Source: Microthyrium microscopicum
Taxonomy: Eukaryota
Assembly (NCBI GenBank): GCA_010405405.1
Contig: MU004234.1
Span: 2,109,441-2,142,025 of the forward strand
Reading direction: 5' to 3'
DNA: 32,585 nt
Shown in pieces: positions 1-32,585 of the stretch. The notes under the pieces are model-generated. The model worked only from the letters and a program-made list of their open reading frames with translations. It ran no database searches and was not told the origin of the DNA. The position numbers and the translations under genes were made by a program. Within the stretch, counting starts at the first letter, position 1. The number at the start of each line of letters is the position of its first letter.

Positions 1-166
1 TAATATCTTTAATATCTTTAATATTTAAAATATTTATTATGTTTCTTATATCTACTATATTTATAATATTCTAGATACTAATATAGGTATAATATAGTAG
101 ATAGCTCTAATTACTATATATAGAGCTACTCTAGAAACTAGCCTTACTAAAATAATTACCTAAATA

Positions 167-202
167 CTTAGAATTATCTAGGATTATCTAGAATTATCTA
201 GA
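167..202. repeat. 10-bp-period array of TCTAG(A/G)ATTA
   Basis: TCTAG at 177, 187 and 197, with a degenerate copy at 167. Confidence 0.85.
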
Positions 203-239
203 AGGATTAGAAGCCTCTACTCGTCCTTATTAGAATTAA

Positions 240-3200
240 ATACTTTACTACGTTATAGTATTAGATCTTAACTTTATAGACTACCTTATTATAGGCGTAT
301 TAAGATTAAGTTTTATAATGCTATACTCTTTTTACTATTATCTATAATCTATACTTCCTTCTCTTAGCTTAAGTCCTTACCTATAAGATAGAATAATAGG
401 GTATAATTTAGATCTTTCTTATTATTAGTAGTATCTATAATATTCTAAGGAGTTAGAAAGCTCTTAAGGTTTAGTAGCTTAGTTTCTATCTATTCTAGTT
501 TAGTAAACTAAATATATATCCTCTCTAGCTAGTCCTTATTACTAGGTTCTATTTATATAATTTATTAGTAATTAGAGCCTATATATTTACTTAAATATAT
601 AAGATTTATCTATTAAGTCTATATAATTAGGATTATTCTACTTATTATCTACTTTATATCTATTATTAGTTAAGAACTTGCTATATAATACTACTTTCTT
701 AGGCTATAAGGTATATCCTTTATATCTATATTGCTTATTAAACCTAGCTTTAGAACTACTTTACTTACGCCCTAAATATTATAGTAGCTTAGAGGAGTCC
801 TAGTTCTTATTATTTTCTTAAGTAGGTAGATTATAATTATCTTTCTATATAAGCTAGGGTTTTGCCTAAATAGTAATATTAGTAAGATTATTATTAGTTT
901 TTTAAAGAACGTACTTTATAAAGCTTATTAATATTATTATAGTTAAAAGTATATATATCTAGTATTAACTCTTATTACTCTTTATATTATACCCTAGTTT
1001 TATATAATATAAAATCTCTAATAGTTTTTTAAATAAGTAAGCTTATTTTTTATTTTAAATAAGGTAGTTATAAGTTCTATTATTTAAGCTATTTTTAATA
1101 ACTTGCTATAGTTACTAGTTAGTATTATATTATTTATTTAATAATCTAAATTACCTTAATATATAGGTAGATTATACTAAAAATTATTAACTTTTTAGAT
1201 AATAGTCTCTATATATAGCTTAATAAGTATATAGATATATATAATAAGTTTACTTAAAAATAGCAATTCTATAGTCTTTATAACTTAGTAGTTTCTAGAA
1301 TATTTCTTATTCTAGCTAAGTATAAGGATTTTATACTTATAACTAGTATGCAAATAGAATAGTAAGTTATTAATAAGAAAGAAGATTATCTTGTTAGTAA
1401 ATAATATATATTCCTAAAGGTATTATTAATATATAGTTATAATTTAGTCTTATTTAAAAATATAAACTTATATAAGGTTTACTCTCTCTATTTTTACTAT
1501 GTTTATATAATCTAGTAAAGTTACTATCTTTTCTTAGTTACTTAGTAAACTTCTATATATCTAGTTTCTTAGTCTTAGGTAATCTTAGAAACGTAGAGTT
1601 AAATAGTACTAACTAGTATATATCTTACTTAATCTAGATATTTAGTAATAATACTTTTAACTATTTAGATATAGTAATTCTATACTAACTAATATAGTAT
1701 TATATTTAAGTAGTTTTTAAAGTTAGCTAAATTCTATATATACTATATTTAAGAAGATATAAGAATAAACTTATATTCCTATAAAATTAATTATATTTAG
1801 ATATAGTTAGTACTTCTAGAATATTAATTACTATAGTTAGGAACTTAGGTAGTACCTTTTCTAGATATACTTTATAATAATAGTTCTAGAGCTTATTACC
1901 TATTATACTTTATTTATTAGTACTATTTTAATAATCTAGCTAGGGATCTAAGTTATACTTACTATTAAGAGTAGCTAAGGTTAGTTTATTTATAGTTAAT
2001 CTAATAACTCTATTATTATATAGACCTTAGCTTAGTATAGGTTCTTATTTACTTTTTCTTATAGGTAAACGTAAACCCTATAATAGACTAGATTTATTAA
2101 TAAGGTTATTAGTATTATAATAATAAGCTTAGAGAGAAATAGTTGTTTAAAGGCTATATATAGCTACTAAGGTATAGAAATTAGTAGACTAGATTATATA
2201 GATTATAAAGAAAGCCTATCTATATTTATACTATATATAAAGTAATTACTAAGAAGATAATTACCTAAGCTAAAAATAGATATTTAGTTTATATTAGAAG
2301 GTAGTAGGTTATATATTTATACTTATCTTAGTTTTTATAAATAAAAATAACCTAATATAGTATCTTTATTATTTATAACTTAAAAAGAGCTATAGTTAGA
2401 AGAATTTATTTTAATACTATTATATTAGCTTATATATATAATAAGGTAGAGGCAAAATAGAATAAAAGAGATAGATACTAGTATATTATATAATACTATA
2501 TTACTTATTAAGCTTTTTTAAGTAATTACGTTACTATAACTAGTAAGGTAAAGAGAAGAAGTTTCTAGAATAGTCTAAAACTTATATATCTATTAGTATT
2601 TATTAGCTTTCTAAATAAATTTAGATAAATAAATAGTAGAAATACTTAGCTACTACTAAAAGACTTATCTAAGGTACTTATAGGTCTTATATCCTAGGTA
2701 GCTTTTAGAGCTTTATTAGAAGTAGTATTTAATACTATATAGGAATTACGACTTAGTTAATATTTAATAGGAATTATTCTTTTAGAAATTATTAAGCTAG
2801 TTTTTAGATAGTTAAATAAGCCTAACTTAGAATTTAAGGCTTAGAGTTTATTAGTGCCTCTAGATTTATAAGCACTATTTTACTTAATAGTAGTACCTTT
2901 AACTTATATCTACTTAGTTAGGTCTAAAAACTCTATTTATTTATCTAGCTAGTAGGCAATTATTATATTAGCTAATATTTAGTTTAGTAAGTATATTTAG
3001 AATATATTATATTAGTATTAGACGTTTACTTTATAAAGTTTATTCTATTTTATTTATTATAGCTTAAAAGGTCTTAAGCTGTAGGGTCTTATAATAGAGG
3101 TCTACTATTCTTAGTAAAGAAGAATATATAAATTAGAATTTAATAAAAGTAAATTATAGGCTAGGAAAATATATATAGTAGTTTACTTAACCTTATTTCT

Positions 3201-3300
3201 CTTTATACCTTAACCTTTATAAGCTCTTATAAGCTTATTCTTCGTCTTACTTTTTATAATATTACTTTACTCTACTAAATTTATTATAGTTTTATTAACT
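240..3300 (-). pseudogene. RIP-degraded ORF(s) of unknown product
   Basis: Minus-strand frames read protein-like for hundreds of codons when TAA/TAG are treated as Q/W (e.g. 2940-2100 and 2040-1260). No family motif was recognised, and frame changes or introns are likely. Confidence 0.4.
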
Positions 3301-3689: not shown

Positions 3690-4170
3690 AGGCTATTCTA
3701 AGGACTATATAAAAGGGGTAAGAGAAGGTAAGTTATATTAAGCTATTTCTATATTACGTTATATTAATATAAGAGGTTAAACTAAAGTAGATTATAGGAT
3801 CCTATTTAGCTATTACTTTCTATTATTATTAGATTTATTAATTCTAAGGCTATATAAAAGGGGCTAGAGATTATTAAGTTATACTAAGTAATTTCTATAC
3901 TATATTATATTAAAGTAGAGGCTAGGTAGTAATTCTATATTATAAAATTAGGTTTAGCTTACTATTATATTTAATTATTATCTAATGCGTTAATTATTAT
4001 ATATACTAATTCTTAGGCTATATAAAAAAGGCCTAAGATTATAAGCTTATACTAAGCTATTTTTATATCTCCTTATATTAAAGTAGAGGCTAGGTATTAA
4101 TCTATATTATAAAGTTATATTTAGCTATATTAATTTATATTATAAAGTTGTATTTAGCTATTATACTAAT
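3690..4170 (-). repeat. Three diverged repeats of about 145-170 bp
   Basis: The anchor CTATATAAAA occurs at 3705, 3850 and 4018. Each is followed by similar TAAG(C/T)xATTT and TATATTAA...AGAGG blocks. Confidence 0.7.
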
Positions 4171-5354: not shown

Positions 5355-5712
5355 AAGTTAGAGTTATAGGCTTCTTCTATTATAAAGCTTAAGGCTTCTA
5401 TTAAATAATTACTAGATTAGGAATTATAATAAGTACTTTATTTTATAATTCTTATTAAATAACTTTTAGAACTAGAGTTATAAGCTTTATTTATTATAAA
5501 GCTTAAGGCTTCTATTAAATAAGCTTTAGACTTAGAGTTATAGGCTCTTTTCTTTATAAAGCTTAAGACTTTTATTAAATAAGCTCTAGATCTAGAGTTA
5601 TAGGCTCTTTCTATTATAAAGCTTAAAGCTCCTATTAAATAAGCTCTAAGCCTAGAGTTATAGGCTACTTTTATTATAAAGCTTAAGGACTTTATTAAAT
5701 AAGCTCTAAAGT
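5355..5712 (-). repeat. 60-bp (20-codon) tandem repeat, four in register plus one displaced copy
   Basis: ATAAAGCTTAA at 5496, 5556, 5616 and 5676, plus a displaced copy at 5382. Confidence 0.92.
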
Positions 5713-7688: not shown

Positions 7689-7733
7689 TTTAAAAATTTC
7701 TAAACTTATCTAGACTTTTTAGACTTTTTTAAA
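7689..7733. repeat. 9-10-bp-period array of T(C/T)TA(G/A)A
   Basis: TTTAAA 7689, TCTAAA 7699, TCTAGA 7709, TTTAGA 7718, TTTAAA 7728. Confidence 0.55.
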
Positions 7734-7739
7734 TATACT

Positions 7740-10450: not shown

Positions 10451-13400
10451 GTCTAATTAAAGTATAATAGTATCTACCTAAGTAAATTTTAATAAGAAAT
10501 ATAAAAAGGATAGGTTACTATAACTAGAATAAGTATATATTAAAGTATGTATCTAAATAAAGCTAATTATAGAGAAGTATAATTATAGTTAATATATTAA
10601 GATTAAATGCTATTTAAATCTAGATACTATATTAAGTTTCTTAAGGTTTATATATTTATATAAGCTTATTAAGTTTATAGGAGCTTAACTAAGTTTATAG
10701 ATTATTTTAGTATAAGAAATAATATAATATTTATAATTATTAGTAATAGATATAATACTAAAATAGATAAAGATATTAGGTATAAAGATAGAGTTAAATA
10801 AGTAAGCTAGGAATTAAAACTAGTAATAGTTATTATAAGTAAGTCTTAGATTTAGATAGTAAAGTTACTTAGACTAATAGTTTATTATTAAGGTTATAAA
10901 AGGATATAGCTTTTCTTATCTAATTAAATAGAACTTAATACCTTAAGTTTAAGCCTTCTTAATCTCTAGTTCCTTATCTCTATTTTTTTTTATCTTTCCT
11001 TTTTTTATTATCTTTTCCTTAGCTTTTAGATATAGATAAAGTAGATAATAGAATTAATTCTAGTAAAGAAGATAGTTATATAACTAGATTTTTTTTAGTT
11101 TATCTAAGTATATTAATAATACTAGTATTATAATATAGTATAATTTATTAACCTTTTACTAATAAAGATAATAGATTTATTTATAAAAAAGCTAAAGTTA
11201 AAAGACTAAATTACTAATTTTTGTTTTTAAAGGAGTTCTAATATTATAAATAAATAGGAGGAAGATTAATAGAATACCTTATTAGAATGTTAGCTTAGAT
11301 TATTAATTACTTAATAGTATAGATAATATAGCTTTATAATTCTTTCTAAGCTTTTTACTTAAGATTCTAGTAGGAGCTATAGAAACTAATAGTACTATAT
11401 TATTTATTTTATAAGTTAATATTATTAGGAAGGAAGGATATAAGTAGAATAGTATTTATAAATAAATATAGCTAAGTTATATCTTATAGATATATATTAA
11501 AAGATATTTAGCTAAATAGATACTTTATAAGCTATAAGGTATTATTATCTATCCTTATTATTTTTTTATCTCTCTCTAGATTCTTTTAGCTACTAGATAT
11601 ATCTATTAGTCTAGTTAAGATATTTAGATTTACTATAAAGGTATATTTTATATATTAATAGTAATAATATTAACTTTAAGTATATTTTCTAATATTCTAT
11701 ATTATTAATAATTTAATAGTAGTACTTTAATCCTTATTATAAACTAAATTAATTATATATAAAGTTGTTTATTAAATTTGTTATTTCTAAGCTTTGTCTT
11801 AATTATAACTAAACTCTTTTTAATATTTTAGTATATATTATTTTTAATATTCTTTAGGTATTTTTATATCTCTTTTATAAATAGAGAAGCTAGGGCTTCC
11901 TTAGGTTAAGATACTAGTTTAGTTAACTTAGACTAAGTTAGTCCTAATTTAAGATATATCTATAAATTTTTAAGTCTTATTAGTTATACTACTTAACCTT
12001 TAGAATAAGCCTTTATAAAACCTATAGTATTTAACTAAAGCTTATTAATATTCTATAATAGTATATTAATTAGATTATTATCTAAGTATAATACGTTAAT
12101 TAAGATATACTTTACTATATTACTTACTTAAAGAACTTTTTTAATACTCTAAGTCTAATTACTTAGTAATATTAGAATAGACATTATAATTAGATACTTT
12201 ACTTACTACTAGTTACTTCTAGTACTATAGCTACTATATATTTTAACTAAAACCTAAATATTCTTATTAAAGAAGTATTTACTTACTCTTAATAGCGTTT
12301 AATTACTTATAGTAGACTTTAGAATATTTTAGAAGAAGTAATAGATATTAGCTTTATTATATAAGGACGAGCTAGTTCTTAAATAGCTTACTTTAATTAA
12401 AAATAACTTTTTACTTAATATACTAGTTTTGCTAAAATAAAGTACTTAGAAATTAAATTTCTTAATTATATATTAAAGTGTTACTATAATTATACTAGTA
12501 GAAGTAGGATACTTTATAATAATTAAGACCTTACCTTATTATAAGCCTTATTTTTTTTACTCTCTATTAAGAAAGTACGTTTCTAGGTTAGTATAGACCT
12601 TTTTAATAATATTTACTATATACTATATTTAAATGCTTATTTTTAGAAACTAAGGAGCTTTTTTAATAAAGAGATTATTCTTAGGCTTAGCTAGTTTCTT
12701 AGAGTTAAGCTTTAGAAATAGGCTACTATTAATTCTTACTAGTACGTAATAGAGATTATCTTTAGCTTATTCTTTAATTTTCTTTACTTATTTTAATATT
12801 AATAGATAGGGTACCTTAATAATAAGTCTATAATATATAATCTTAATAAAGGTTTAGTAGACTATATAGTTAGCTAGCCTAGCTTATATTTATTTAGCTT
12901 AATATAGTTTACTTTTATACTAAGTGCTAAAGTTATTAATAGTAGTTATTCTTAGTTTATTTATTTATATTACTATGTATTTATTAAGCTTATTTATAAA
13001 CTATATTATCTCTAAGTCTATTATATTAATAATAATAAGTCCTATTTTATTTAAAAGTAGTATAATATACTTTTAACTAAAAAGCTCTATATTTATTATA
13101 TAGTAGAATTTAAATAAGGTATATATACTAGCTAAAGTAGCGCTTACTTAGGCTTATTCTCTTATAAGCTATTTCTCTTCTCTTTTATTAAGATACTTAT
13201 ATAATCTTATATTTTTTATAATAAGTATAATAATCTAACTAGAAATAGCATTAAGTAATAAAAGAGTAAATAATATATAGTTATTAATAAAGATTACCTA
13301 ATCTTTCTTTAATTTCTATTTAAGAAACTCCTTAATGTCTTTATTAGTATTAGAGAAGTAAATATATTATATATTTACTAAGTAAGTAATTAGGTTTAGT

Positions 13401-15489
13401 TAGCTTACTATAGTATTATAATATATCTTAGATTAACCTAATATAGTAGCTTTAAACTATATACTATAATAGTACTTTAATAGTATATAACTAAGTATAT
13501 AGGTTTTTTTATTAATATTAGAATAAGTTAGGTTATTTAGTATTTAATATCTATAAGACTTATCTAAGACTAAAACTCTAACTATAAAGTATCTTTAACT
13601 ATATAGGTATTTACCTTTATTTACTACTAATTCTATATTAGTATAGAGATAGTTCTTAAGTTCTAGAGTTTTATAATATCTAGTTTTCTATTCTTCTAAC
13701 TACGCTTATAAGAGTCTTATAATTAGTTATAAGACTTAGGATATATATAAACCTAATATTATTAGTATAATAATACTAGTCTACTTAAGTATTCTAAAAT
13801 TAGTTTTAAAATTAGTAAAAAGTCTATATATATAGGAGACTTTATTTAGGAATATAAACTTAGGTTTTGCGCTTAAATAGTTAATATAAAAGGTAAATAT
13901 CTAGTTAAGCTTACTTTTATATTTTAAGGTATTAATTACTTTTTCTTATTTATCTAATTAAACTAAGATTATAGATATAATTATTTATATATAGTTTATA
14001 CTAATAGTAAGAGTACTATACTAGTAGTTATTAGGATTAATATAAGTTATAGTAAATAATAACTATACTAGCAATTTCTTAGAATAATAGTATATTATAA
14101 GTTAGTTAAGATTCCTTAACTATATATAAGGACCTTTCTCTTTATCCTTAGGGCTCTAATAACTAGGAACCTAAACATCTAATAGATATTCTTTAAGAAG
14201 CTTAGGTTTCTTTTTCTTTATAAGGCGCTACTTCTTTATATATATTACTATACTTTTAGTCTATTAACTATTTATCTAAATAGTAACTAGTATTTAGATA
14301 GTCTTTCCTAAGCTTAGAATATTTATAATATAAAGGCTTTATATAAGGATAATATACTTATATATAATTATTACTCTAATAGCTTAATAAATTTAAATAT
14401 TAACTTTAAATTTAGGAATAATAAAGTCTAATATATTACTTTTATCTTTATAGTTAAAGAATATATATATCTCTTTCTAGTTTTTAAGTATTAAGTACTT
14501 ATAAGTTTTATTCTATAGTAGTCCTATATAGAAGCTTATAGTAAAGAAAGCTTTTAAATTCTTATTTTTAACTATTTTAGACTCTCTACGTTCTATATAT
14601 ATATTATAAAATAGTTTAACTTATAAAGCTTTAGTATATAGAGCTTTACTTATTATAAAAGACTTAAGTATAATAGATTTACGTTTAGTATAGTTAAAGT
14701 AATTAATAAAGAAACTAGTTCATTCTTAGATATATTTATTTTTAGAAGTTTTTAGTATATAAAAACTAATAGTATTAGGTATTAGTTTATATATATTAAA
14801 TAGATAAGATTTAATTTGTTTTTTATAAGCTTACTATATATTAATTCTTATATTACTATCCTTACTATTATAGTTATACTATTACTTATCTTTATAAAGT
14901 TATAACTCCTAAAGGTATTTTACTTCTATACTATATAATATATTTACTTTATTTAATAAAGAAAATAGTAAGTTTAGTAACTAAGGTTTAAATAGCGTAG
15001 TAATCTTTTTTATAGTTAAATTATTTACTTTAGTAGCTATAAAGTTATCTAGTATAGTAATATCTTTCTTAGTTAAGTCTTTAATATTTATAAAAACGTT
15101 TACTATAAGTAGTAATAATTCTAAGTTATTAGTAGTAAGATTAATAATATCCTTAGTACTAGTAAAATTAATAATATACTTAGAAGAACTTAAAGGTTTA
15201 GTATAGCTAAAAGAAAATAGCTTATTTTAAGAAGATAGTATAGTTAAAGAAGCTAGCATACTTAGAAAGCTATAATATTTTTTTAAGTAATTAAGAGGAA
15301 GTTTAGCTATTATTAGATAACTTAATTTTTATAGAATAAAGAGTAATATAATATAATCTAGAGTAGTAGAATTAGGTTTCTATAAATAATATATTTTAGA
15401 TAGATAATTAATATTTATAGAAATTAGCGCTTATACTTTATTATTTTTTATTTATATATTGCTAGTAGGAAGCTTAAGACTTTAAAGCT

Positions 15490-16509: not shown

Positions 16510-16605
16510 AACTATCTTTATTATCTTTAGTAACTTTACTATCTTTATTATCTTTAGTAACCTTACTATTTTTATTATCTTTAGTAACCTTACTATCTTT
16601 ATTAA
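16510..16605 (-). repeat. 27-bp (9-codon) tandem repeat, about three units, formerly acidic
   Basis: TTATCTTTAGTAAC(C/T)TTACTAT(C/T)TTTA repeats three times. The SNF2 frame reads NKDSKVTKD (de-RIP approximately DEDGEVAED). Confidence 0.85.
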
Positions 16606-17259
16606 ATTAGTTAGGAATAGGATCTTTATATATATTACGTTTATATATTAATAGTTTAGTAGTAAAGGTAGGTTAAGTAGTTAGCTAGGGATTTATATAA
16701 GGTTAAGTATAAGGTTTCTTATTATATCTATTTTAGAGTAAAGGAAAAGGGCTTAGAGTAGAAGTAACTAAAGTCTTATACTTTTATTTACTAGTATAAG
16801 TTTTCTTTAAGGGAGATTTAACCTAGGTAATCTTAAAAGTAATTTTTTTTAGCCTATAGAGATTATTATAGGTAACTTTAGTAAAATTATATATATTTAA
16901 ACTTATTAAAATAGTTTAATTATTTTATACTTAATCTATATTATAAATTATATTTAAACTTTTAGATAAGTCTAACTTTAGGCTTATTATACTTTTAAAG
17001 TACCTTATACTAATCTTAACTATATATTTATAAATATCTATATTTATTTTAGATAAGTTAAAAGGGCTTAGTTTATATATATTTTTTAGGTCTAGTATAA
17101 CTTATTTTTATAAAAAGTCCTTAGTAAATACTAGTATAATTGTATTAAGGTCTTTATTATTCTAAATGTTAGTTTCTTAAAAGGTAGATAAGGACTATTA
17201 GGTTTTATAGTATTTCTTTAAAGTAGGCTTTTTCTTTTTTAATTATATATATATAGGAG

Positions 17260-17423
17260 AGTCTAGTAGAGCTAAAGGAAGTAGCTAGGTAAATTTAGGT
17301 AGTATATAGCTATTACTAGAGATATATATATAAGATTAGGAAGAGTTTAGTAGAGCTAAAAGAGGTAGCTAGGTAAATCTAAATAGTATATAGCTATTAC
17401 TAGAAGTATATATATAAGATTAG
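17260..17423 (-). repeat. 84-bp (28-codon) direct repeat, two units
   Basis: TAGTAGAGCTAAA at 17264 and 17348, each followed by GTAGCTAGGTAAAT...TATATAGCTATTACTAGA...TATATATAAGATTAG. Confidence 0.9.
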
Positions 17424-18639: not shown

Positions 18640-19150
18640 TATTATACCTATAGGCTACTATTAACTAAAAGTAAGGTTTATACTAAAGAAGAGCTAGTTT
18701 TAGAGATTTATATATAAAATACTAAAACCTTCTAAAGTAAGAGTACTAAAGGAATAGCTTATCTAATATTATAATTAATTTATAAAAGGAAATTATACCT
18801 AGAGGCTTTATTAAAGAAATAGTTAGGTATATAAAAGCTTTAAGCTATAGAATTAAGAATACTAATTTATATCTCTAACTTAAGGAGAAGGATTTAATAC
18901 CTATAGAGCTAAACTAAAGTAATTATTAAGTATATAAAATACTAATAGCTAAAGAATAAATAGATTAAAAGAACTTATTTAATTTAATAATTATAAAGAA
19001 GTAATAAGATAGAAATATAGTAGTAAGAGAAGAAGTATTAAAGGCCTAAAGAAAGAATATTTTAAAGTAGTAAAGTAGAACTTAGTTAATATAAGCTTAA
19101 ACTTAAAAAGAAGTCTTAGCCTATATAAGGTTAGCTAAGTTTCTAACTTA
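18640..19150 (+). pseudogene. Small charged-residue-rich fossil ORF related to the opposing segment at 19300-19890
   Basis: Purine-rich plus strand with an internal repeat TATATAAAATACTAA at 18711 and 18931. It carries AAGAACTTATTTAAT...ATAATTATAAA at about 18969. Confidence 0.3.
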
Positions 19151-19299
19151 ATAGTTATAATATAAGGTTTAGTAGTAATTATAATAGAATAGGAAATTAT
19201 AATTAATATCTATATTTATACTTAATATTTAAGAAAAAAGGAGTAGTTTCTTTTAACCTTAAGAACTATATAATTATTATATATAGGCTCTAGTAAGGT

Positions 19300-19890
19300 T
19301 TCTATCTATTTAACTAGAAGATTCTATATTAAAAGAGAGAATATTTCTATTTTTTTACTATTAAATCTTTCTTACTACTATTTTCTTACTATTATTTTAT
19401 AATTACTAGATTAAATAAGTTCTTCTAAATTTATCTTATACTTAGTTATTATATATAGAATAGTATAGCTTTATAATAACTTTACTAGTAGATAAACTTC
19501 TAATTATATCTTTAGTAGAAAGAGTAATTTCTTACTTTATTCTTATAACTTCTTTCTTACTATTATCTTTCTCTTTTACTACTCTTTATAATTATAAGAA
19601 TTAAATAAGTTCTTTTAAATAATTTCTTAAGTTTATCTTTTTATAGATAGTATAGCTTAGTAATTTAAAGTTTAGGCTAAATAGCTAACTTTTAGTAGTT
19701 ACGCCTTTAAGCTTTAGTATAGTAAGTAAGTTATTATTTTTATTACTATTATTTATCTTCTTTTCTTAATATTTCTTCTTTCTTAAAGAAAATACTACTT
19801 AAATTCTTTATATCTTCTATCTCTTCCTTAGCTTTTACTCTACTTATTATAAGTATAGCTACTTATAATACTTTACGTACTTAGTAATTA
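19300..19890 (-). pseudogene. Small fossil ORF with two internal repeats about 190 bp apart
   Basis: TTAAATAAGTTCTT at 19411 and 19601, each flanked by TTTATAATTA and ATAGTATAGCTT blocks. Confidence 0.3.
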
Positions 19891-22239
19891 GTATATAATT
19901 ATAATAGCTAAATTTATAGCTAAGATATAGGTAAAGATAAAATTTCTACTAAGATTTCTAGTTATCTAGCTATTATAATCCTAAAACTTCTTTCTAATTA
20001 GTATAAAACTTATACTCTTTATAAAGATAGTAAGCTAAATAATTCTAAGATTATTAAAATATAAGTTTAAAGAAATTTATTTCCTTATTTCTAGCTAATT
20101 ACTTATATAGACTAAATTTTATAGCTATCTCTATCTACTTAGCTAAGGAAGATCCTTTATCTATATTCTTAAACTTAAGTAAACAAAATCTTAAAACTAA
20201 AGATAAAGATAAAGTAAAAGTCTAGAATAGTCTAAAAGTCTTTAAATATATTCTTATACTAACGCCTTAAATAGATTCTAAGAATTCTTAATATATTATT
20301 TATAATCTTATAGTAAATCTATCTAATAGTAAGCTCCTAATCTAGTAGATCTATAGCTTATAAGTATATTTAGGTAAGCCTTATCTAGAAAATATACTAA
20401 AGAAAAGTTTAAAAATAGCTCTTAGTAAAAATAATCTAGTTAATAAAGTAAATTAATACTTAAGTAATAGTATTAATAATAAAGTTAATTAAGATAGTAC
20501 TACTAGTAAGCTTAAATATATATATAAATTAAAAAAGAAGTATTAATAGGCTATAGTTTTTAATATTAAAGTATAATTCTTTATAATAAAGAATAATAAA
20601 TAAGTTATCTAGTTTATATTAACCTTAATTATTTACCTATATTTTAAAGATAAAAGAAATACTTTTAAAGTTAATAAGAATAGAAATAATATATAAGAAA
20701 ATATTATAACTTTAATAGTTAAAACTATCTACTTTTTACTAAATAATCTAATTATAAAGAAGAAAAAGATAGACTAGATAGTTACTAAGTTTTCTATAGT
20801 TATTTTAGAAGAGTAACTTATCTAGTTAGCTTATAAGATTAATTAAAATATTAAATACTATAAAAGTATACTAGCTATAAGCTATATAACTATGCTTACT
20901 ATTAAGATATACTCTAACTTATTAAATAACCTTTTTTAAGTCTACTCTACTATAACTAGTAATTTAATAGTTAGTAGTAAAGATACTAAATTTAACCTAC
21001 TTCTTTACTATCTCTAATATATTATTTAGAATTAGTACCTTATAGTCTTTTAATTCTTTAGGGTTAATACTAGCCTAGCTATACTTATAAAAAAGAATCT
21101 TCCTTAGCTAATCTTTTAAGGTATATAAACTAATCTAGATATTATTTCTACTAATATTAATTATTTATTTATAAATAGCGTCTTTAGCTTATAGAAGGAT
21201 TATATTACTCTTCTAGATAATTATAATAATCTTATAAAAGTAAAGAATAATAGAATTATAAGTTTATTATATATAGTCTATTCTTTAATTCTATATCTAT
21301 TTATAGCCTAGAGTATAGATTTAGTAGAATAGCTTTATTAGGCATATAAGTAGAATAAAGCTCTCTATAATGCTATATTATATACTACTAGAATACTAAG
21401 AAGTAAAGATTATAAATTCCTAGTAAGCCTTAATTTTTATACTATAGTAAATAGATATAAATATCCTTATTTTTAAGAAAGTAACGTCTATATAATCTAA
21501 CTTAAGCTAAGAGCTAGACTTAAAGGCTCTTAATTTACTACTAAAGTTATTAACTAAGACTATAATATTTAAGCTACTTATAATATATTTATAATTATAT
21601 ATTATTTTTCTATTATACTTAATAATAGATATACTAATAATACTTAATTTTCTTTATTCTAAATCCCTAAAGAAGTTATTATTTCCTTAGACTATAGCTA
21701 ATTAATTAAGAACCTATATAAGGCCTTCCTTAAACTAAAAGAGCTAGAGGTTAAGGTATATATATATAATTTAGATAAGCCTATTATATACTAAATAAAT
21801 AGTCTTAACTAGATATAGTTAAGATAAAAAGAATATAACCTAGATTACTATTTTATTATAGTACTTAGCTTATACCTAAACTTCTTAGAATATTAGCTTT
21901 TATTAGAGAAGATTTTTACTATTTATACCTTACCTTTATTTCTTAGAAAAGTAGAGTTTAGTATTATATTAAAGTATACTAAAGAAGTATTAATAAATAC
22001 TAATACGCTAAAAGAGTTAACTATAAAGGTTAATAAGGTATAAAAGGATACTCTATTAGATAGCTTATCCTCTAGTAATATTAAGAATAATATATTAAAA
22101 CCTTTAACTAATTAGACTAAAGAAACTTTAAAAAAAATAAGTAGTAGTTCTACTTTATAAAAGCTAATTAATAAGCTACTTAATTTAAATTTATCTAACT
22201 ATATAACTAAATCTTAGTTTAAATAGGAATTTAAAGCTA

Positions 22240-22640
22240 ATAATAATAATACCTCTTATCCTCCTTCTCCTTTTATCTAAGATAATATTAATATAGAATT
22301 TTTAGATACTACTATAGTAGTGCTCCTCTATTCTATTAATAATAGTACTTCTTAGCTTCTCTACTCCTTTATCTAAGATAATATTAATATAGAATCTTTA
22401 GATACTACTATAGTGGCGCCCCTTTATTTTAATAATAATAGTACTTCTTATTCTTTTTTTCTCTCTATCTAAGATAATATTAATATAGAATCCTTAGATA
22501 CTACTATAGTAGTATCCTTCTATTTTACTAATAATAGTACCTCTTATCCTTCTTTCTCCTCTATCTAAGATAACGTTAATATAGAATCTTTAGATACTAC
22601 TATAGTAGCGCCTTTTTATTTTATTAATAATAATACCTCT
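22240..22640 (+). repeat. 96-bp (32-codon) tandem repeat, four units, in frame with the SF1 helicase ORF
   Basis: GATAA(T/C)(A/G)TTAATATAGAAT at 22281, 22377, 22473 and 22569. Confidence 0.95.
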
Positions 22641-22694
22641 TTCTTTATAGAGTCTTAAGCTTAAGATTAATAGACTAAGCTAAAGGTTACTAAA

Positions 22695-22918
22695 GCTAAT
22701 AGTAAATAGGATTAATAATTAAAAGTAGCTAATAATAAATAGGATTAGTAATTAAAAATGGCTAATAATAAATAGGGTTAGTAATTAAATATAGCTAATA
22801 ATGCTAATAATGATAATAATAATAATAATAATACTTATAAAGATATACTTAAAGATATTTTTAATTCTAATAAATAGTTAGATAATAAGATTACGCCTAT
22901 AAAAAATACTAATAATAC

Positions 22919-22955
<37 letters not shown>

Positions 22956-22995
22956 AATACTACTAATGTTAATAATACTAATATTAATAATAATT
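22695..22995 (+). repeat. 33-bp repeat (three units) followed by (AAT)n-rich low-complexity tracts
   Basis: GCTAAT at 22695, 22728, 22761 and 22794. AAT runs lie at about 22800-22833 and 22910-22993, probably former GAT/AAT codons. Confidence 0.85.
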
Positions 22996-25488
22996 AGTAC
23001 TAGTTACTAAGTATTTTTATAGGACTAGATATAGCTACTTTTGTATAATTACTAAAAACTAACTTTAGAATTACCTTAGAAGAGATTTAAAATCTTATAA
23101 AAAAGATAGAATAGATTAGTATTATAAAGGCTTTTTATAAAGATTAAAAAGAGTTTGTTAATATTATTCTCTTAAAAGATAGTAAAGATAGACTTAATAT
23201 TTACTATACTAAACTAGGATATAGTAAGACTAAAACTATAAAAGCTATAATAGTAATATTAATTACTCTTATAATATTTTATTCTAATTTTAAGATAAAG
23301 ATTTTAGCTATATATACTATAAATATATAATTAGATAACCTTATTACTAAGTATATAAATGTCTATATAGAAGTTAATTCTATAAACTTTTTGTAATTTT
23401 TTGCTATCTAAGAATACTTAATTAAGATAGAGAAATCTATTACTTTAAGGAAATTAAAAGAGGTATAAACCTAAGTCTACTAAAATTAAGGTTCTAGTAT
23501 ATAATAGTAGAACATAGATAATATAAATAACTATAGTACTAATATCTTAAATACTAAAATAGTATTACTTACTAAATAATATAGTGCTTACTACTTATAG
23601 TAACTTTATATAAATACTAAACATTAAGACTTTAAAGATATTTATAATTATTATATTAAATATTTTAAATACTTATTTAGAGAATTTATAAGTTAAGCTA
23701 GTAGGATAATTAATATAATTAACTTAGTAATAGGAAAGTAAGAATATAATATAGATATAGCTACTAAAGAGTTACTTAATTATACTTTTAACTTCTAAAT
23801 TCTTAATAAAAAGTATTATAATAAAGAGAAGCTCTTAAAGTTAAAAAGCGCTAATTATAGTAAACTACTACTAGACATAGAGTAATATTATTTATAATTA
23901 ATAATTACTCTTCTTAGTTTTATAAACTATAATGCTTTATAAGAGCTTTTTTAGGTAAATTTTATAGGTATTAACTTATAAATTTATAATAAAGTAGTAG
24001 CATTATATAGACTATAAATAATAGCTATTATATCTCTATATAGACCTTAAATAATTATATAGACTAGAGATCTATTCTAGTCTAGACTTATCTATAATCT
24101 TAAATATAAAAAAGCTATATTTCGTAATAGTTCTTAAATACTATTAATATATAATACTATAGTAAATAGCTTTAGCTAAACTATACTAAAATAGGTATTT
24201 AGATTTAATTTATTATACTATAATCTTCTTAATAATATAGGCTATAAAATTCTTAAATATACTAATAATAATAACTCTAAATTTAACTAACTATAATATA
24301 TTATAGGCTAGCTTTTCTTATCCTTAGAATATAAAAAAAATATGCTACTTATAATATTTATAAATATTAAAGATAGTAAAGTTAAAAAGGATATTACTAG
24401 TTTAAGTTCTAATGCTTATAATACTTATATTATAACCTTTATATAGATTAAACTTCTATTATAGATATAATTAAAAGGCGTTAATACTATAGTTATTACT
24501 CTTTACCTTACGTAAACTAGCCTCTATACTAAAACTAAAGATTAGCTACTTAAATAAGTTACTATATATATTTAGAATAATTATATATATACCTAGTAAA
24601 ATTATTAAGATATACCTTTATAATTTAGCTAAGTTTTAATAACTACCTATAATAATAGCTCTAGTACTAAGCGTAATTAGAATCTTATTAATCTTATTTA
24701 AAAAGATTATACTAGTTTCCTTATAGAAAACCTATAAATAAATACTATAGTATCTTAAGGCTACTTATCCTTATTTTTTAGTAACTTAAAGCTTTATAGT
24801 ACTATAATAGCCCCTAGTACTAAGAAATAAGAAGAGTTTAAACAATCTATACTTAGTAGATTACTAAAGTATTTTATTAATAATAGCTATATATAGTATA
24901 TACTATTTACTAATAATTACTCCTATTAGAATTTAGAGAAACTTAATATTCCTAACTTTAATAAAGTAGTTTCTTATTATAAGAAAGAGCTAAATATACA
25001 TAAGAAGATTAAAACTATTATATTTAAAGAACTAAAAGTAATTAGAGATCTTATAGGACTAACCTTACTTTATAGTTTTAAACTTAAGAGTAAAGAATTT
25101 AAAACTAATAAAGCTAATAAAGAAAGTAAAGTTAGTAAAGATTAGTAGTAAGGAATAGTAATAAAGAAAAGAATAGTAAGAAGGTTTAAGTTTAAAGTAA
25201 GGTTTATTTAGCTAATTAATTAACTAACTTAGATAGTATAATAGTTAGTACTAAATAGAAAAAGAGTTTAGGATAAAAGAGTTATATAAGTAAGAAAATT
25301 TAATAAAAAAAAATATATAAAGGAGTTAGACTAGAAAAATAGATAAAATAGTACTATTACTAGAAAAGTTAACTTACTAAGCTAGTAATTAATAATATAA
25401 AGTTACGTAATACGTTTTTAGTATAATATTATAACCTATTAGTTATATAAGATTAGCTAGTACTCTTACTTAGTCTTAGTATTAGCTA

Positions 25489-25532
25489 TTTAGAATATCT
25501 AGAAATATCTAGTATATCTAGAAATATTTAGT
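25489..25532. repeat. 9-10-bp-period array of T(C/T)TAG(A/T) upstream of the transposase
   Basis: TTTAGA 25489, TCTAGA 25498, TCTAGT 25508, TCTAGA 25517, TTTAGT 25527. Confidence 0.8.
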
Positions 25533-25719
25533 AAATAAAGGTATATTATATATATAATAAAATATTATTAGGTAATATTCCTAGAAGTTAACTTTACTAC
25601 TTAAGCTTTAGAATACTAAGTAAAATTAAACGCTAGTTATTATTAGTATAAATTTAATACTAGATTTACTACTTATATACTAAGAATGTACCTATATCTT
25701 TAAAAGTTAATAAGGATAA

Positions 25720-28700
25720 AATAGGTATAGAAGTTAATATACTAGTATAACCCTTCTAGTATTACGTATAATAATAAAGAGAGATAATTAAATATAGACC
25801 TATTTAACTTATATATTTTAGTCTTTTAATATATATTTAACCTAAATAAGTTATATTACTATTCTTATAGACTAATCTTTTTAAATATAGGTATATTAAG
25901 TCTTTTAAATAGCATATAGTTCCTCTTTACTATAAATCTTTATAATTACCTCTAAAGGCCCTTTAATTAAGTATAAAGATTAGTACTAGTAATAAAAACT
26001 CTAGTAAAAGAACTCTCTATAAATAGTCTCTTTACTAGTATAAGATTTACTACTTATCCTAGTTATAACTATACTATATCTAAAACGTTTATAATAGAAG
26101 ATAAAATAATTACGCCTTTTACTATATTCTTATCTTTAGTTACTCTTAAAGCTATAGAAAGAGTTACTACTCTAATATAGTATAAATATAGTTTATAAGA
26201 TAAAATAAATAAGGCTAATAAGTCTTAAAAGTCTAAAAGTAGTATATAATATATAGTTAATAAAGTTATTATATATTTATAATAAAATCTAGGATATTTA
26301 GTAAGTATACTTATACTAGCTTATAAAACTAATAAAAGCTATAACTAGATTAATAAGTATAAACTACTACTTTAAGATACTATTAAGATAAAGTACTAAT
26401 ATTATTATTTAGAGAAAGAAAAGCTCTATAGAGAAGTAAAGCTATAAAGTTAACTAGAGAAAGAACTAGAGTTTACTAGTTAAGTAGTTTCTAGTAGTAT
26501 ATTAAAGAATAAAATAAATAAGTTATTTTAAGAAATAGCTTTTAGAAGTAAAATATATAACTTACTTAGTTAGAAGGTAAAGGATTATAAATTACTAATA
26601 AAAAATATTAATAATCTTAAAGGCTTTATACCTAGCTAGTAGAAAGTAATACTTAAGAAGCTACTATATAATAAAATAAAAGGTATTAAAAATCTTCTAG
26701 GTAGTAAAGTTAAAGTATACTTTTAAAGTATCTTAGAAGTTATTAAATTCTTTATCTTCTATAGGCCTTTTACTAAAGACCTCTACTTTAAGCTTATAAT
26801 ATAAAAAGATAAAGATAGTAAGTATATCTATACTAATACTTAATTAGTAGAAAGGTAGTAGAAATTATAAGATAAGGTTAATTTAGATATTATGCTTATT
26901 CTTATCTACTAGGAGTTAGATAAGACTATAATATCTAAATAATATAGTAATAACTATATATAGGCTTGCTATATAACTATTTTTAATCTATTAGGAAGTA
27001 TTAGAAGAGCTATAGGAAGACTAAGATTTCTTTTTATTATAGTACTTCCTAAACTAAAAGATATAAATATTAATAGTAAACTTAAGATATTTTATAATAC
27101 TATAAATATTATGTTTAAAGGTTTAATACTACGTATTTAAGTATTATAAAGCTATTTACTAATAAAATATAGAACTTAGAATAATCCTTAAAAGTAGTTA
27201 CGTTATAGTAACTACTAATAGCTAGTTTTAAAGGTATCTTCTAATTCTTACTTATATAAGTATAAATTATAAAGAGCTTATTATAATTATAGATATCTAG
27301 TCTAAATATTACTATTCTATTTACTTAGTACTATAACTATATTAGTAAAACCTTACTAGTAAATAGGCTTATTAAACTTATATAACTTTATAAGAGAATA
27401 TATTAAAATAGGAAGCACTTTGCTATACTAATTAAAAAAGAGAGTATACTAAGTAGCTTACTACTACTAATAATACTAAAGATAAAAACTATATCTATAA
27501 AATTTATAATTTTATTTAGAATTATTCTTTATTAAATATTTATATAGTAATTACTTTTAATTTACTATATATATTCTTTTTAAATAGACTAGTTAAGTAA
27601 GTAATAGACTAGATAGCCTAAATTATTTTAAAAAAGAGAGTACTAGTAATATCTATAATACTAGTAGCTAAAATAAAGAATAATAGAACTATATAGAAAA
27701 CCTATACCTATAAGACGCTAAAGACTAAGAGGAAAGATAGTAATATACTAAAGACTAAGTAAGAAAAGAAAAAGAAGAAGTCTATATTTAGTATAAAAGT
27801 AAAGTCTATAATTAATTATAGGTTTTTATAGTATTCTATTTATCTAGGCTTTCTAAGGATAGCTTAAGGCTACTATAACGTTTAATAAAAGACTAGCCTA
27901 GAATTATAAGTACTTTTAAAGTAACTTATAGCTACCTTAGCTCTACTCTTAAACTTAAAGAACTTAATTATAATAAAATTTATTAAAGCTTTAATAGATA
28001 TTATTATACTTTCTAGCTATAAGTTATATAATAAGAATATACTTAAATATATATAAGTCTATTTATAAATTATAGAATATACTAAAATAGTAATATATAA
28101 GTATAAGACTCTTTAAGCTAAGTTTAAAGAACTTAATTTCCCTAAGTTCTATAACCTAATTTACTTTATACTATCTATTTATATATTTAGTACTATAGAT
28201 AGAACTAGTTCTAGCATTATAGAAAAGTTATATTAAGAGTATACTATACTAGTAATAAAATAAACTAACTTTTAACCTAGTTAGTACGTTTAGATAATTT
28301 ACTATTTTACTAATTATATTAAGAATATAATCTAGAATAATAATAATAATTATAACTATTAAGTCTATAATGTTACTAAGAAGAAGATTATATTTAAAAG
28401 AACTTATCTTATAATTATTCTATTAAGTATACCTAAATATAGTTTATAACTCTAATTATATTATATAGATAAACTATATAATAAAGATATTTATAAATTT
28501 AGTATACTTCTTACTAAAGACATTAATAAATAGGCTAAGCTTAATAACCTTAAAAGTTATTTATATAGCTAGTTAATTAATTACTATAAAGAAAACCTTA
28601 AGAAGCGCTAGTCTTTTCTAAAGCTAATACTATTATATATATAGAGTAAAGAAATATACTTAGATAAAGATCTTATTAATAATAAACTAAACTTTATATA

Positions 28701-29589
28701 CTCTAGTAAAGTATTATATCTTAATACTTTTTAGCTAAGTTACCTTATTATAATACTATATAGTAATATAACCTATATAATAAATAATAATAAGAATAAT
28801 ATATAACTCTTTATAGCTTACTATAAATAGAAATAGCAAAAAAGTAAGAATAATAGTTAATAGTATAATAAAGTCTTAATTAAAAACTACTAGTAATATA
28901 ACTTTATATAGGCTTAAGCCTATCTTATATCTAAGAAAGAGCTTAATAATAATTTTAATCTTTTAGGTTAACTTCTTATATAACTACTTATTATTTATAT
29001 AGTATATAATATAAATTAAATAATAAAAGATTTTAAATTATAACGTAGATATACTAAATTTCTTATAACTTTAGTTTAAGAGTATATACTAATCTTAAGA
29101 AAAGCTATAAAACTTATATTTAATAAACTATTAAGTCTTATATTATTTAAGCTAGTTATAAAGTTAAAAGTATATAAACTAAATAAACTATTAACTATTA
29201 TATATATAGTTCCTTATAAAAACTTAAAGTATCTTAATTACTATTAGTTAAATTTATACTCTAATTATAATAATTATACTAGAATATATAACTTAGTTAT
29301 TTTTAGCAAATAAGGAATTAAGATAACTAAGACTAAAACTATAGCAAGATATAAAGCCCTAGAAAAAAAGAATAGAGAGCTTTATAAAGCTTAGGTTAAA
29401 GTTTATCTTAAGAAGCTTACTAATAAAATAAAGAAAATAAAGTATAATAATAAAAAAGAAGTAGAAAATAAAGAGAATAAACTAGATAGTAGCAAAAAAG
29501 ATAAGTAAGAGACTAGTAAAGATAGTAAAGAAGAGACTAGTAATAATAATAAAAAAAATAGTAGTAATAATAGCAAAAATATATAATAA
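25720..29589 (+). pseudogene. Plavaka-family (CACTA/EnSpm-related) DNA transposase, RIP-inactivated
   Basis: Colinear family motifs: VYF*SILEVIKFFIFYRPF...ER**KL*D (26715-26873); ELDKT...*ACYITIFNLLGSIRR (D at 26919, cf. SDKT...WPVYLTIGNLP..IR); TTNS*F*RYLLIL...INYKE (27265, cf. ADG..R.C.PIL...DYPE); ITFNLLY (27559, cf. PDLLH); LNFPKFYNLIYF...IFSTIDRTSSSIIEKLY (28132-28233, cf. FNIPKLH..HY..FG..DG..TE.LH); a C-terminal IYIVP...*LNLYSN block; and a formerly acidic tail. The 5' end is uncertain. Confidence 0.88.
27121..27172 (+). other. 52-nt spliceosomal intron in the transposase
   Basis: GT at 27121, branch-like TACTAAT near 27157 and TAG ending at 27172. Removing it joins the two motif-bearing frames (MFK-E-LRIILK). 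Confidence 0.7.
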
Positions 29590-30003
29590 AATAAAAGTCT
29601 AATAAACGTTTTATTACCTAAGAATTATATATTTTATAAACTACTAAGTATTATTATTATTATTATAATATTATCTCCTAAATAATTTAGTTTTATTAGT
29701 ATTAGTTATAGACTTAAATATAATAGTTAGTACAATATAGAATATAATAGAATAAATTAACCTAGGAACTTTAGAAATATATATTTATATAGAATAGTAT
29801 ATATATAAAAAGCAAAATTATTTATTCTTTTTAATAGCTTTTAATTCATAATTCTTTAAATAAAATAATAAGCTATTAATTTTAAATTTTTTTTCTTTAA
29901 TACTTATAGTAATTTAAACTTATTTTACTTCTTTACCTTACTTTTAATATATATATCTTCTCTATACTTTATCTTAAGCTTCTATAGAAAGCTTATCTAG
30001 TTA

Positions 30004-30013
30004 NNNNNNNNNN
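30004..30013. other. Assembly gap (10 N)
   Basis: Run of n in the sequence. Confidence 1.
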
Positions 30014-30741
30014 AATATAGTAAAGTCTTAACTAAAAACTATTAGTAATATAACTTTATATAGGCTTAGGCCTATCCTATATCTAAGAAAGAGCTTAATA
30101 ATAATTTTAGTCTTTTAAGTTAACTTTCTATATAACTACTTATTATTTATATAGTATATAATATAAATTAAATAATAAGAGATTTTAAATTATAACGTAG
30201 ATATACTAAATTTCTTATAGCTTTAGTTTAGGAGTATATACTAATCTTAAGAAAAGCTATAGAACTTATATTTAATAGGCTATTAAGTTTTATATTATTT
30301 AAGCTAGCTATAAAGTTAAAAGTATATAAACTAAATAAACTATTAACTATTATATATATAGTTCCTTATAGAGACTTAAAGTATTTTAATTACTATTAGT
30401 TAAATCTATATCTTAATTATAATAATTATACTAGAATATATAACTTAGTTACTTTTAGTAAATAAGGAATTAAAGTAGCTAAGGCTAAAACTATAGTAAG
30501 ATATAAGGCCTTAGAGAAAAAGAATAGAGAGCTTTATAAAGCCTAGGTTAAAGTTTATCTTAAGAAGCTTACTAATAGAATAAAGAGAATAAAACATAGT
30601 AATAGAAAAGAAGTAGAAAATAGAGAAAATAAACTAGATAGTAGTAAAGAGAATAAATAGGAGACTAATAAAGATAGTAAAGAAGAGACTAGTAATAATA
30701 GTAAAAAAGATAGTAGTAATAATAGTAAAGATATATAGTAA
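30014..30741 (+). pseudogene. Second copy of the 3' end of the Plavaka transposase
   Basis: Colinear with 28862-29589. Confidence 0.8.
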
Positions 30742-32585
30742 AATAAAGATCTAATAGATATTTTATTACTTAAGAGTTATATATTTTATAGACTACTAAG
30801 TATTATTATTATTATTATAATATTATCTTCTAAGTAATTTAGTTTTATTAGCATTAGTTATAGACTTAAATATAATAGTTAGTATAATATAAAATATAAT
30901 AGAATAAATTAACTTAAGAACTTTAGGAATATATATTTATATAGAATAGTATATATATAAAAGATAAAATTATCTATTCTTTTTAATAGCTTTTAATTTA
31001 TAATTCTTTAAATAAAATAATAGGCTATTAATTTTAAATTCTTTTTCTTTAGTACTTATAATAATCTAAACTTATTTTACTTCTTTACCTTACTTCTAAT
31101 ATATATATCTTCTCTATACTTTATTTTAAGCTTCTATAGAGAGCTTATCTAGTTACTAGACTTAAATATTACCTAATAATTATTTACTACTTATAGTAAT
31201 AATTAAAATAGTAACTATTTACTTTTATTATATATCTTTATTATCTTAGTTTCTAATAACCTTCTTTATTTATAATAACTTACTTAATTAATTAATAGCT
31301 TTACTACTACTTATTATAATACTATTATATCTTTTGTTTAATTCTATTATAAACTATATACTATAGTCTTTAAGATAATTAAAAACTATACTTAACTCTC
31401 TTAGTACTTTTATTTAAAGTATACTCTTATTTAAAAAATATAAATTATAAATACCTAGAATTCTAGACTACTCTTTAACTTTTTAAAGTTATTATACTAA
31501 CTAAATTAATCCTTAAGCTAGAAAAGAATAATAATAATACTCTAGACTTAGATATAGAATCTTCCTTAGAAACTAATTAAACTAAACTTAAGTATAAAGT
31601 CTACTTAGACTTCTATACTACTTATTAGCAAAACCTTAGTTCTACTAAATAGACTACTAGCTAACTTATAAATACTATATTATTAAACTCTTCTTAATAA
31701 GATATAGTCCTAAAAGTAAATAAGTAAGTTATTACTATATAAGTATATAAAAACTAGATCTTTAAGTAGAGCCTTAGCGTCTTTCTAAAAATAGTTAAGC
31801 TATTAGTACTAGTACTAATAATAGAAGAGAAAATATAGGTATAGTATTTTAATATATATTAAGATATTTATAGAGCGCTAAATCTATAGCTATTTATATA
31901 ATATATACTATATTATAGTCTAGTTAGAGTATAGTAGAAATCTTCTCTTTTTAGCTATAAATAGTAAAGCTTATAATAAAGAGATAGTTATTATATAAAG
32001 ATATAAGGTATCTTTTTTTAAATAGATAAGGAAAAAGGATAAAATATAGGTATAGATAATACGTTATTTAAGAAAAGTAGGAATAAAAGTTTAATATAGG
32101 CTTAATAGAATTCGTAGTTTTATTAAAATATCTTTAATTTCTCTATTTTTAAGTAAGTAGAACTTTATAGTTAAAGCTTTTAGATCTACTTTTTATATCT
32201 TAGTAGGTATAAAGCTAGGTTTCTTTTAGTATAGTACGTTCTAGATATTAGTACTTAATTTTTTTAAGTTATTATAGATAAGTATATTAATATTAGTTAA
32301 TTAGCTCCTATTTTACTTCTTCTATATATTAAACCTACTCTACTAGTACTACTTATTATCTTCTAGCTAGCTCTTAATTAATAATTACGTTAGCTTTAGT
32401 AACTAATTAATTCTTATCTTACTATAGATAGTAACACTTTTTCTACTTAATACTATAGATGTAGTAGAACTAATTAACTATATTTATAATTAATTTTCTA
32501 GTATATTAGTATAAGATAGAAACTTAAAAAGTATAGCTTACTATATATAGTAGTAGCTAGTATCTAGTTTAATTATTAATTTATA

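Follow-up and report, generated by a model that had tools for sequence, protein, structure and literature searches.

A Plavaka-family transposase fossil in a multi-copy block of RIP-saturated DNA from Microthyrium microscopicum

Background

What was a 32,585-nucleotide stretch of the Microthyrium microscopicum genome (contig MU004234.1 of assembly GCA_010405405.1, positions 2,109,441 to 2,142,025 of the forward strand) before repeat-induced point mutation (RIP) reduced it to AT-rich DNA? This whole stretch, called the window below, had been proposed to be the remnant of a giant Plavaka element that brought with it an SNF2-type chromatin-remodelling ATPase and a Upf1-like helicase. We find that the window holds the fossil of a Plavaka-family transposase and that the DNA surrounding it has diverged copies in the same sample. 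Tentatively, with confidence that falls somewhat short of even, we read the window as the dead remains of one copy, or of most of a copy, from a large, multi-copy Plavaka/CACTA-type element family that was killed by RIP. The basis of this reading is the combination of one DDE transposase, no other transposable element (TE) enzyme, no internal redundancy, tandem arrays, relics of open reading frames (ORFs) and flat depth among the copies.

RIP damage across the window

RIP makes C-to-T and G-to-A transitions only, and its usual thresholds are a TpA/ApT index of about 0.89 or more and a (CpA+TpG)/(ApC+GpT) index of about 1.03 or less. For the whole window, these indices are 1.63 and 0.050. There are 39 CpA and 90 TpG dinucleotides in 32.6 kb (0.03 and 0.07 of expectation), and the GC content of 1-kb windows across all 32,585 bases is 16.5-22.9%, about 20% overall, which makes the DNA AT-rich throughout. 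Both indices, together with the almost exclusively transition type of the differences between copies (see below), identify the damage as RIP.

1..32585, no strand: RIP-saturated, AT-rich repeat DNA of even mutation depth (GC content, dinucleotide indices)

RIP of CpA is saturated and even across the window. In 2-kb bins, the GC fraction stays within 0.171-0.209 and the (CpA+TpG)/(ApC+GpT) index within 0.026-0.107, and these narrow ranges agree with the original prediction that the genes of the block were mutated to a similar depth. A single stop-to-stop frame of at least 100 codons is left, encoding 101 amino acids (aa) at 5438-5743 on the minus strand. The host would be a RIP-competent filamentous fungus.

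A transposase core of the Plavaka family

Six reading frames were read through, with stops as X, and searched against Pfam in two passes, one with long frames (plus strand 1-28,002 and the entire minus strand) and one with 108 overlapping segments of up to 700 aa that fully cover both strands. The sole biologically sensible family in these scans is PF18759, the Plavaka transposase. It appears with an E value of 0.026 (14.2 bits) in a 2000-aa frame and of 0.0067 (16.1 bits) in a segment of 700 aa; neither score reaches the 26.3-bit cut-off. That a true match reached 14-16 bits only is a measure of how poor the sensitivity of Pfam is on RIPed DNA.

26457..27122, plus strand: Plavaka transposase core fossil, PF18759 profile positions about 1-194 (Pfam, phmmer, purine/pyrimidine profile and its traceback)

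A phmmer search with the 1200-aa frame at 25203-28802 against 1.84 billion representative proteins gave 14 matches at E values of 1e-3 or lower, the best with an E value of 1.0e-9, 53.9 bits and 25% identity. All of them align to one part of the query, at about nt 26,397-27,138, and 14 of 14 are PF18759 proteins themselves (E values from 1e-24 to 2e-47).

The purine/pyrimidine (RY) pattern of codons survives RIP because RIP makes transitions only. Match emissions from hmmbuild were accordingly converted to probabilities over the eight purine/pyrimidine codon classes, and the resulting profiles were aligned locally to the six frames, the top score being judged against column-permuted versions of the same profile. 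A profile from 14 Plavaka sequences scores 127.1 bits in the frame of the Pfam match, compared with a permuted-profile maximum of 25.7±2.3 bits (highest 33.9, n = 100 permutations). RY-codon scoring thus lifted the transposase signal from Pfam's 16 bits to 127 bits. No second Plavaka copy was seen in the window, where the next-best frames score 21-25 bits (best 24.9), the level of the RY null.

In the traceback, 52 of the 214 aligned columns equal the consensus, and 113 are either identical or compatible with RIP through reversion of transitions. The core has about 15 in-frame stops, and the strings 'PF..DL', 'DKT' and 'YITI.NL...RR' are still legible. The alignment reaches profile positions of about 1-194 out of 325, and all 14 library relatives are fragments that end there. 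A word-index homologue search from the Plavaka alignment returned members of the query alignment alone and no longer relatives, and the same kind of search with the X-masked transposase region returned no homologues; the index fails on this family.

Because the RY score of 127 bits stands against a null maximum of 34 and every library match belongs to PF18759, the predicted transposase is accepted as a real fossil, despite its sub-threshold Pfam scores. It securely documents a Plavaka-family transposase in DNA that RIP has heavily damaged. The core had been placed at about 25.5 kb, which is not where it lies. It was also one of three fossil genes said to be recognizable in the window, and it is the one that phmmer and the RY profile recover; no test found the other two, which are the helicase genes considered next.

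Search for SNF2 and Upf1-like helicase genes

The most striking part of the original prediction, that the transposon brought along a chromatin remodeller and an RNA/DNA helicase, is not upheld. An SNF2-family ATPase would show an SNF2_N plus Helicase_C core with motifs I-VI in order, and a Upf1-like SF1B helicase an AAA_11/AAA_12 core with motifs I, II (DEAxQ), III, V and VI. Neither SNF2 ATPases nor Upf1-like helicases match by Pfam in any of the six frames of the window. No helicase of any kind was returned from the Protein Data Bank (PDB) by phmmer with the four most ORF-like frames, at 11250-17000 and 20100-27299 on the plus strand and at 12302-17551 and 6751-9450 on the minus strand. A RIP-aware motif scan, with counts set against a shuffled null, stayed at null level for the Upf1-like motifs and for all SNF2 motifs but one motif-I-like site.

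RY profiles were also made for both families from training sets that are all prokaryotic. The SNF2 profile has 85 sequences, made up of rapA from E. coli, six SNF2 genes from plasmids and 78 relatives from genome contigs. Over the whole window, its N-lobe reaches 25.3 bits (null 24.3±2.7; 26 of 100 permutations reach this score) and its C-lobe 20.7 bits (84 of 100 permutations). When the profile was rebuilt without RapA and the DUF1156-linked SNF2 genes, it found these genes, each in its own DNA, at 93.6, 90.6, 77.4 and 75.0 bits over nulls of 21-30 bits. Since left-out subfamilies are recovered at 75-94 bits, a full SNF2 core should have shown, and the negative result for an SNF2 ATPase is strong. 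The whole-core SNF2 profile has a 34.2-bit match at 9.3-10.0 kb, reached by one of 60 permutations, that was rejected as a K/E-rich stretch lying on the charged linker of the profile.

The Upf1-like profile, for AAA_11/AAA_12, also has 85 sequences (7 plasmid genes and 78 metagenome relatives). Left-out members about 20% identical to the rest were found at 55, 32 and 81 bits, so that the power of this prokaryotic profile is limited and the negative result for a Upf1-like helicase is moderate.

Could the predicted element nevertheless be hidden here? One piece of evidence for it is the lone SNF2 motif-I-like, RIP-compatible match at 9187-9216 on the minus strand, which has a null expectation of 0.15 per shuffle and is followed, in the same frame and at plausible spacing as judged by eye, by NW-like and DE.H.IK-like strings. 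A second is the top score of the Upf1-like RY profile, 36.2 bits at 29269-29712 on the plus strand, which none of 80 permutations reaches. However, 22 of 65,106 positions are as good as the motif-I site or better in RY score, and the N-lobe attains only 14.9 bits in its frame. The traceback of the Upf1-like match runs through a K/E-rich stretch of low complexity and leaves motifs II, III, V and VI all unaligned, and the motif II-III block scores 21.3 bits against a null of 21.7. Both matches were therefore rejected. With both SNF2 lobes at null level and neither family in the Pfam or PDB searches, a giant Plavaka element carrying these two genes is highly improbable. The word 'SNF2' is absent from the available text of a 2025 survey of Plavaka elements (PMC12730594). 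Judged by its listing, a literature search on giant fungal transposons with SNF2 yielded Starship and unrelated work alone.

Diverged copies in the same sample

Sequencing data were taken from four runs of one sample (X1-X4), which contain 0.54, 0.48, 0.43 and 0.11 of the words of the window. Contigs, which are unitigs of 280-1180 nt, were aligned to positions 10004-30003 at 80% identity or more. The four runs gave 3659, 3655, 3388 and 509 matching contigs, which cover 30 of 30 bins of this interval in every run. In X1, 914 contigs are at least 99% identical to the window, 972 are 95-99% identical, 1306 are 90-95% identical and 467 fall below 90%. Almost all of the differing places in this run (3128 of 3162, or 99%) are transitions, and at the 40 listed of 3881 variant places there are 3-16 different contigs per site.

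These data are good evidence that at least 20 kb is present in the same sample in roughly 5-16 additional copies that have diverged by RIP. The claim that the block was multi-copy therefore holds for 10-30 kb, the interval covered, and the Plavaka stretch within it is repeated in the genome. Summed word depth in X1, where the sum is not a copy number, ranges from 383 to 1207 over the 30 bins, with its peak on a 108-bp tandem array. Among the remaining 29 bins, 27 have depths of 472-874 and the last two have 383 and 394; the transposase bins (556 and 727) are like the rest of the interval. This flatness is only suggestive of one copy number for the whole 20 kb. It is possible, if still doubtful, that a giant DNA transposon driven by Plavaka, 20 kb or more in length and perhaps more than 32 kb, was amplified as one unit to about ten copies together with long ORFs of unrecognized kinds.

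Flat depth in multi-copy DNA would also be produced by block amplification without transposition, in which a large segment, for instance a centromeric, subtelomeric or tandem one, that happened to hold a Plavaka relic was duplicated about ten times, through recombination or segmental duplication, and then RIPed. Two structures in the window are of the kind that such a history would leave, namely a tandem duplication inside the block and an indel of the recombination type that is bounded by a direct repeat.

28862..30003 and 30014..31155, no strand: 1152-bp unit in two copies, 92.6% identical (self-comparison)
10979..11557, no strand: 579-bp segment absent from other copies (joint in one contig per run, in four of four runs, with a side of 62 nt)

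Between the two copies of the 1152-bp unit, 84 positions differ, all by transition; transversions and indels are absent, and in RY space the copies are the same. After A (as ApG) lie 47 of the 51 G/A differences, and 21 of the 33 C/T differences lie before T (as CpT). CpA being exhausted, the latest rounds of mutation in these copies hit the second-choice context. The only N run of the window, at 30004-30013, sits exactly at the junction of the copies, where it replaces 10 bases. The pair is either a true tandem duplication on which RIP acted later or two different genomic copies joined in the scaffold; if the latter, 30014-32585 may be discontinuous with the remaining sequence. A direct repeat of about 25 nt (10971-11000 and 11553-11577) flanks the 579-bp segment, which is an indel polymorphism among the copies. 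Set against block amplification are the transposase within the unit, which offers a simpler route to about ten copies, and, weakly, the spread of identity classes, which extend from under 90% up to 99% and suggest that the copies differ in age and did not arise in a single burst. We regard this explanation as unlikely.

Three further observations concern individual contigs. Those of X4 are mostly 90-95% identical to the window or less, and are longer (up to 1182 nt), as if relatives were present in this run and this copy were not. At position 13667, two contigs in each of the four runs diverge into sequence that retains CpA and TpG; this departure may be a copy boundary or a less-mutated relative. 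Most contig joints that skip 2-4 kb have a shorter side of only 20-33 nt and were not used as deletion derivatives.

Relics of other long reading frames

Stops make up 12.3% of codons overall and about half of that, 0.066-0.074 per codon, in long single-frame stretches. Such frame-specific stop depletion marks former long ORFs. An initial screen, set at no more than 7 stops per 150 codons, passed over the true transposase frame and was replaced by a 200-codon map and a two-state segmentation, from which the following long frames emerge.

12212..17101, minus strand: long low-stop frame of 1630 codons with 118 stops and a 36-aa in-frame tandem repeat; orphan ORF relic (segmentation)
20058..27300, plus strand: low-stop frame (start position a multiple of 3) continuing into the transposase core, with an in-frame 96-bp array of 4.2 copies (200-codon map)
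27457..31149, plus strand: low-stop frame of 1231 codons with 81 stops, in another frame than the core (segmentation)

The frame at 20058-27300 has 13-17 stops per 200 codons, compared with 25-45 in the other plus-strand frames. It is probably the transposase ORF joined to one or more upstream ORF relics of an unrecognized family, and its segment 20058-25142 alone comprises 1695 codons with 125 stops. The frame at 27457-31149 crosses the 1152-bp duplicated unit and has a K/E/N/S-rich stretch, for which Pfam returned only low-complexity noise. The strand of the relic at 12212-17101 is uncertain since an overlapping plus-strand frame, 14397-17162, is likewise poor in stops. Antisense frames that overlap the other relics are also stop-poor in places, so not all strand calls are safe.

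No credible Pfam match was found for the long relics at 12212-17101 (minus), 20058-25142 (plus) and 27457-31149 (plus), and phmmer searches of PDB with the best frames left them unmatched. About seven orphan ORF relics had been predicted. Long relics do exist, three of them defensible and several others shorter and weaker, and the count of seven was not reproduced. If the window does derive from a giant transposon amplified as a unit, a possibility that we have called doubtful, its ORFs would include repeat-containing proteins of about 1600 codons that lie beyond current profiles. A 108-bp and a 96-bp tandem array (coordinates below) have unit lengths divisible by three and are in frame with the long low-stop frames around them, which means that the lost proteins carried 36-aa and 32-aa repeats.

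Several candidate identities for these coding traces were discarded. Pfam matches to DUF6584, CIS_TMP, Ctr, Pox_Ag35, TAFH, POX and Sas-6_C_CC are of low complexity, all fall below cut-off and were treated as noise. Similarity to pyridoxal kinase (several PDB entries) at about 7711-7990 on the minus strand has E values of 0.35-1.3 and no Pfam support, and is probably due to chance. A string in the same region, 'YNY.LT.YTRE', resembles YDYVLTGYTRD of pyridoxal kinase. PDB matches to MJ0690 (E value 0.17) and IQGAP1 (E value 0.86) were likewise taken as chance.

One element or a mosaic of repeats

One alternative to a large element is an ordinary RIP graveyard, a mosaic of unrelated repeat families, each with about ten copies, among which a Plavaka element of normal size happens to lie. 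This is the commonest make-up of AT-rich RIP blocks. Both strands and several frames hold ORF relics, as they would in a mosaic, and the contigs have many loose ends and joints where copies depart from the window (778 loose ends, of which 24 are listed). Relics of reverse transcriptase (RT) or integrase could also have been missed by Pfam, which barely sees the true transposase.

Against a mosaic stand the fairly flat depth over 20 kb and the fact that no family occurs twice. Self-comparison of the 32.6 kb, in bases and in RY space, revealed neither dispersed internal repeats nor long terminal repeat (LTR) pairs, and no family left a second fragment. All 108 of the 108 six-frame segments lack a retroelement domain (RT, RNase H or integrase), a DUF3435 domain and any TE enzyme domain other than Plavaka, at the low sensitivity that Pfam has here. 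The earlier statement that no retroelement or Starship captain was seen in the window is upheld to this extent. Lack of repeated fragments and LTR pairs is unusual for a retroelement nest. On balance, we consider the mosaic somewhat less likely than the large element.

The preferred reading, a dead member of a large Plavaka/CACTA-type family, can be stated as a sequence of steps. The element's own enzyme would have been a Plavaka-family DDE transposase of the CACTA/EnSpm-like 'CMCT' clade, and the element would once have moved by cut-and-paste and reached roughly ten copies. Duplication would have made it a target for RIP. Repeated rounds of C-to-T and G-to-A mutation, first at CpA/TpG and now mostly at CpT/ApG, would then have wrecked every ORF and left inert AT-rich DNA as the end product. 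The other long ORF relics would be accessory genes, and the 60-170-bp arrays would be subterminal or internal repeats like those of large CACTA elements.

Several points weigh against this reading. No ends, terminal inverted repeats or target-site duplications (TSDs) were found in the window, although RIP would erase short termini and the ends may lie outside. Inverted matches in RY space are at chance level, and no significant inverted repeat flanks the transposase gene. Unitigs of 280-1180 nt cannot show that copies are collinear over 20 kb, summed word depth does not measure copy number, and the evidence for copies covers 10004-30003 only. With 14-16 bits for the true Plavaka match, other TE relics could be hidden from Pfam. 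The N run at 30004-30013 may mark where scaffolding joined two different copies. Mosaics degraded by RIP are the usual case in fungi of this kind. Finally, the available text of the 2025 survey contains no Plavaka element lengths by which a size of more than 20 kb could be gauged (PMC12730594).

Comparison with known elements

In the available text of that survey (Kojima 2025; PMC12730594), Plavaka comprises PlavakaA and PlavakaB lineages of the CMCT clade and is CACTA/EnSpm-like. The catalytic domain is of the DDE type, with C(2)C and H(3-4)H located after the second D and before the E. The elements end in TGT..ACA or CATCA..TGATG and have 2-3-bp TSDs, and a TET/JBP gene is present in some families. 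The families reconstructed there are from Agaricomycotina, where hypermutation is reportedly undetected. Excerpts from other studies describe Plavaka as abundant in the mushroom Marasmius oreades (PMC8290104) and helicase, OTU and C48 protease accessory domains as filters for fungal DNA transposons (PMC5751038).

The window shares with Plavaka elements a homologous transposase core (14 of 14 library matches belong to PF18759) and a multi-copy state, and accessory ORFs next to the transposase are known in the Plavaka group, for which Iyer et al. (2014) is a further reference. It differs in being a dead, RIP-saturated copy, and so in residing in a RIP-competent fungus, whereas the reconstructed families of the survey are from Agaricomycotina. 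In addition, no TET/JBP domain was seen in the window, termini and TSDs are not recoverable, and the repeated stretch is at least 20 kb long. Termini of the Plavaka kind would be erased because RIP rewrites such short sequences.

Large CACTA/En-Spm elements have several ORFs and many short tandem or subterminal arrays, and attain lengths of 10-30 kb in plants. The window resembles them in its related transposase clade, its several ORFs and its many short tandem arrays. In contrast to these elements, CACTA termini and a 3-bp TSD are not readable in it.

Starships are large, cargo-bearing mobile units of Pezizomycotina that are moved by a DUF3435 tyrosine recombinase, the 'captain', which lies at one end. 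The window may likewise represent a large fungal mobile unit with cargo, but it has no DUF3435 captain within it, and its enzyme is a DDE transposase. If a giant Plavaka-driven transposon was indeed amplified as one unit, Plavaka elements would be, like Starships, carriers of large cargo, here preserved only as RIP fossils. There are hints that the Plavaka family found here is unusually large.

The AT-rich blocks of filamentous ascomycetes, which are RIP-degraded isochores or centromeric regions, are usually nests of LTR retrotransposons with repeated fragments. Composition, RIP indices, the scarcity of ORFs and multi-copy relics are common to these blocks and the window. Unlike them, the window has no retroelement domain and no dispersed repeat of its own.

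RY-codon scoring recovers fossil genes that ordinary hidden Markov model searches nearly miss, and it also gives calibrated negatives. The approach may serve for other RIPed windows.

Tandem arrays and an inverted repeat

Self-comparison also brought out a series of short tandem arrays, two of them those that lie in frame within the long relics, and one inverted repeat.

15491..16074, no strand: tandem array of a 108-bp unit, 5.4 copies (self-comparison)
22238..22641, no strand: tandem array of a 96-bp unit, 4.2 copies, followed by a 33-bp array and TAA-rich simple repeats up to 22994 (self-comparison)
5453..5708, no strand: tandem array of a 60-bp unit, 4.3 copies (self-comparison)
3825..4143, no strand: tandem array of a 168-bp unit
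16511..16604, no strand: tandem array of a 27-bp unit
17254..17423, no strand: tandem array of an 84-bp unit
18909..19057 and 19529..19675, no strand: inverted repeat with arms of about 150 bp, 76% identical (self-comparison)

The inverted repeat has a second, inner pair of arms at 18915-19033 and 19366-19484. The whole of 18909-19675 is possibly a small foldback or an insert resembling a miniature inverted-repeat transposable element.

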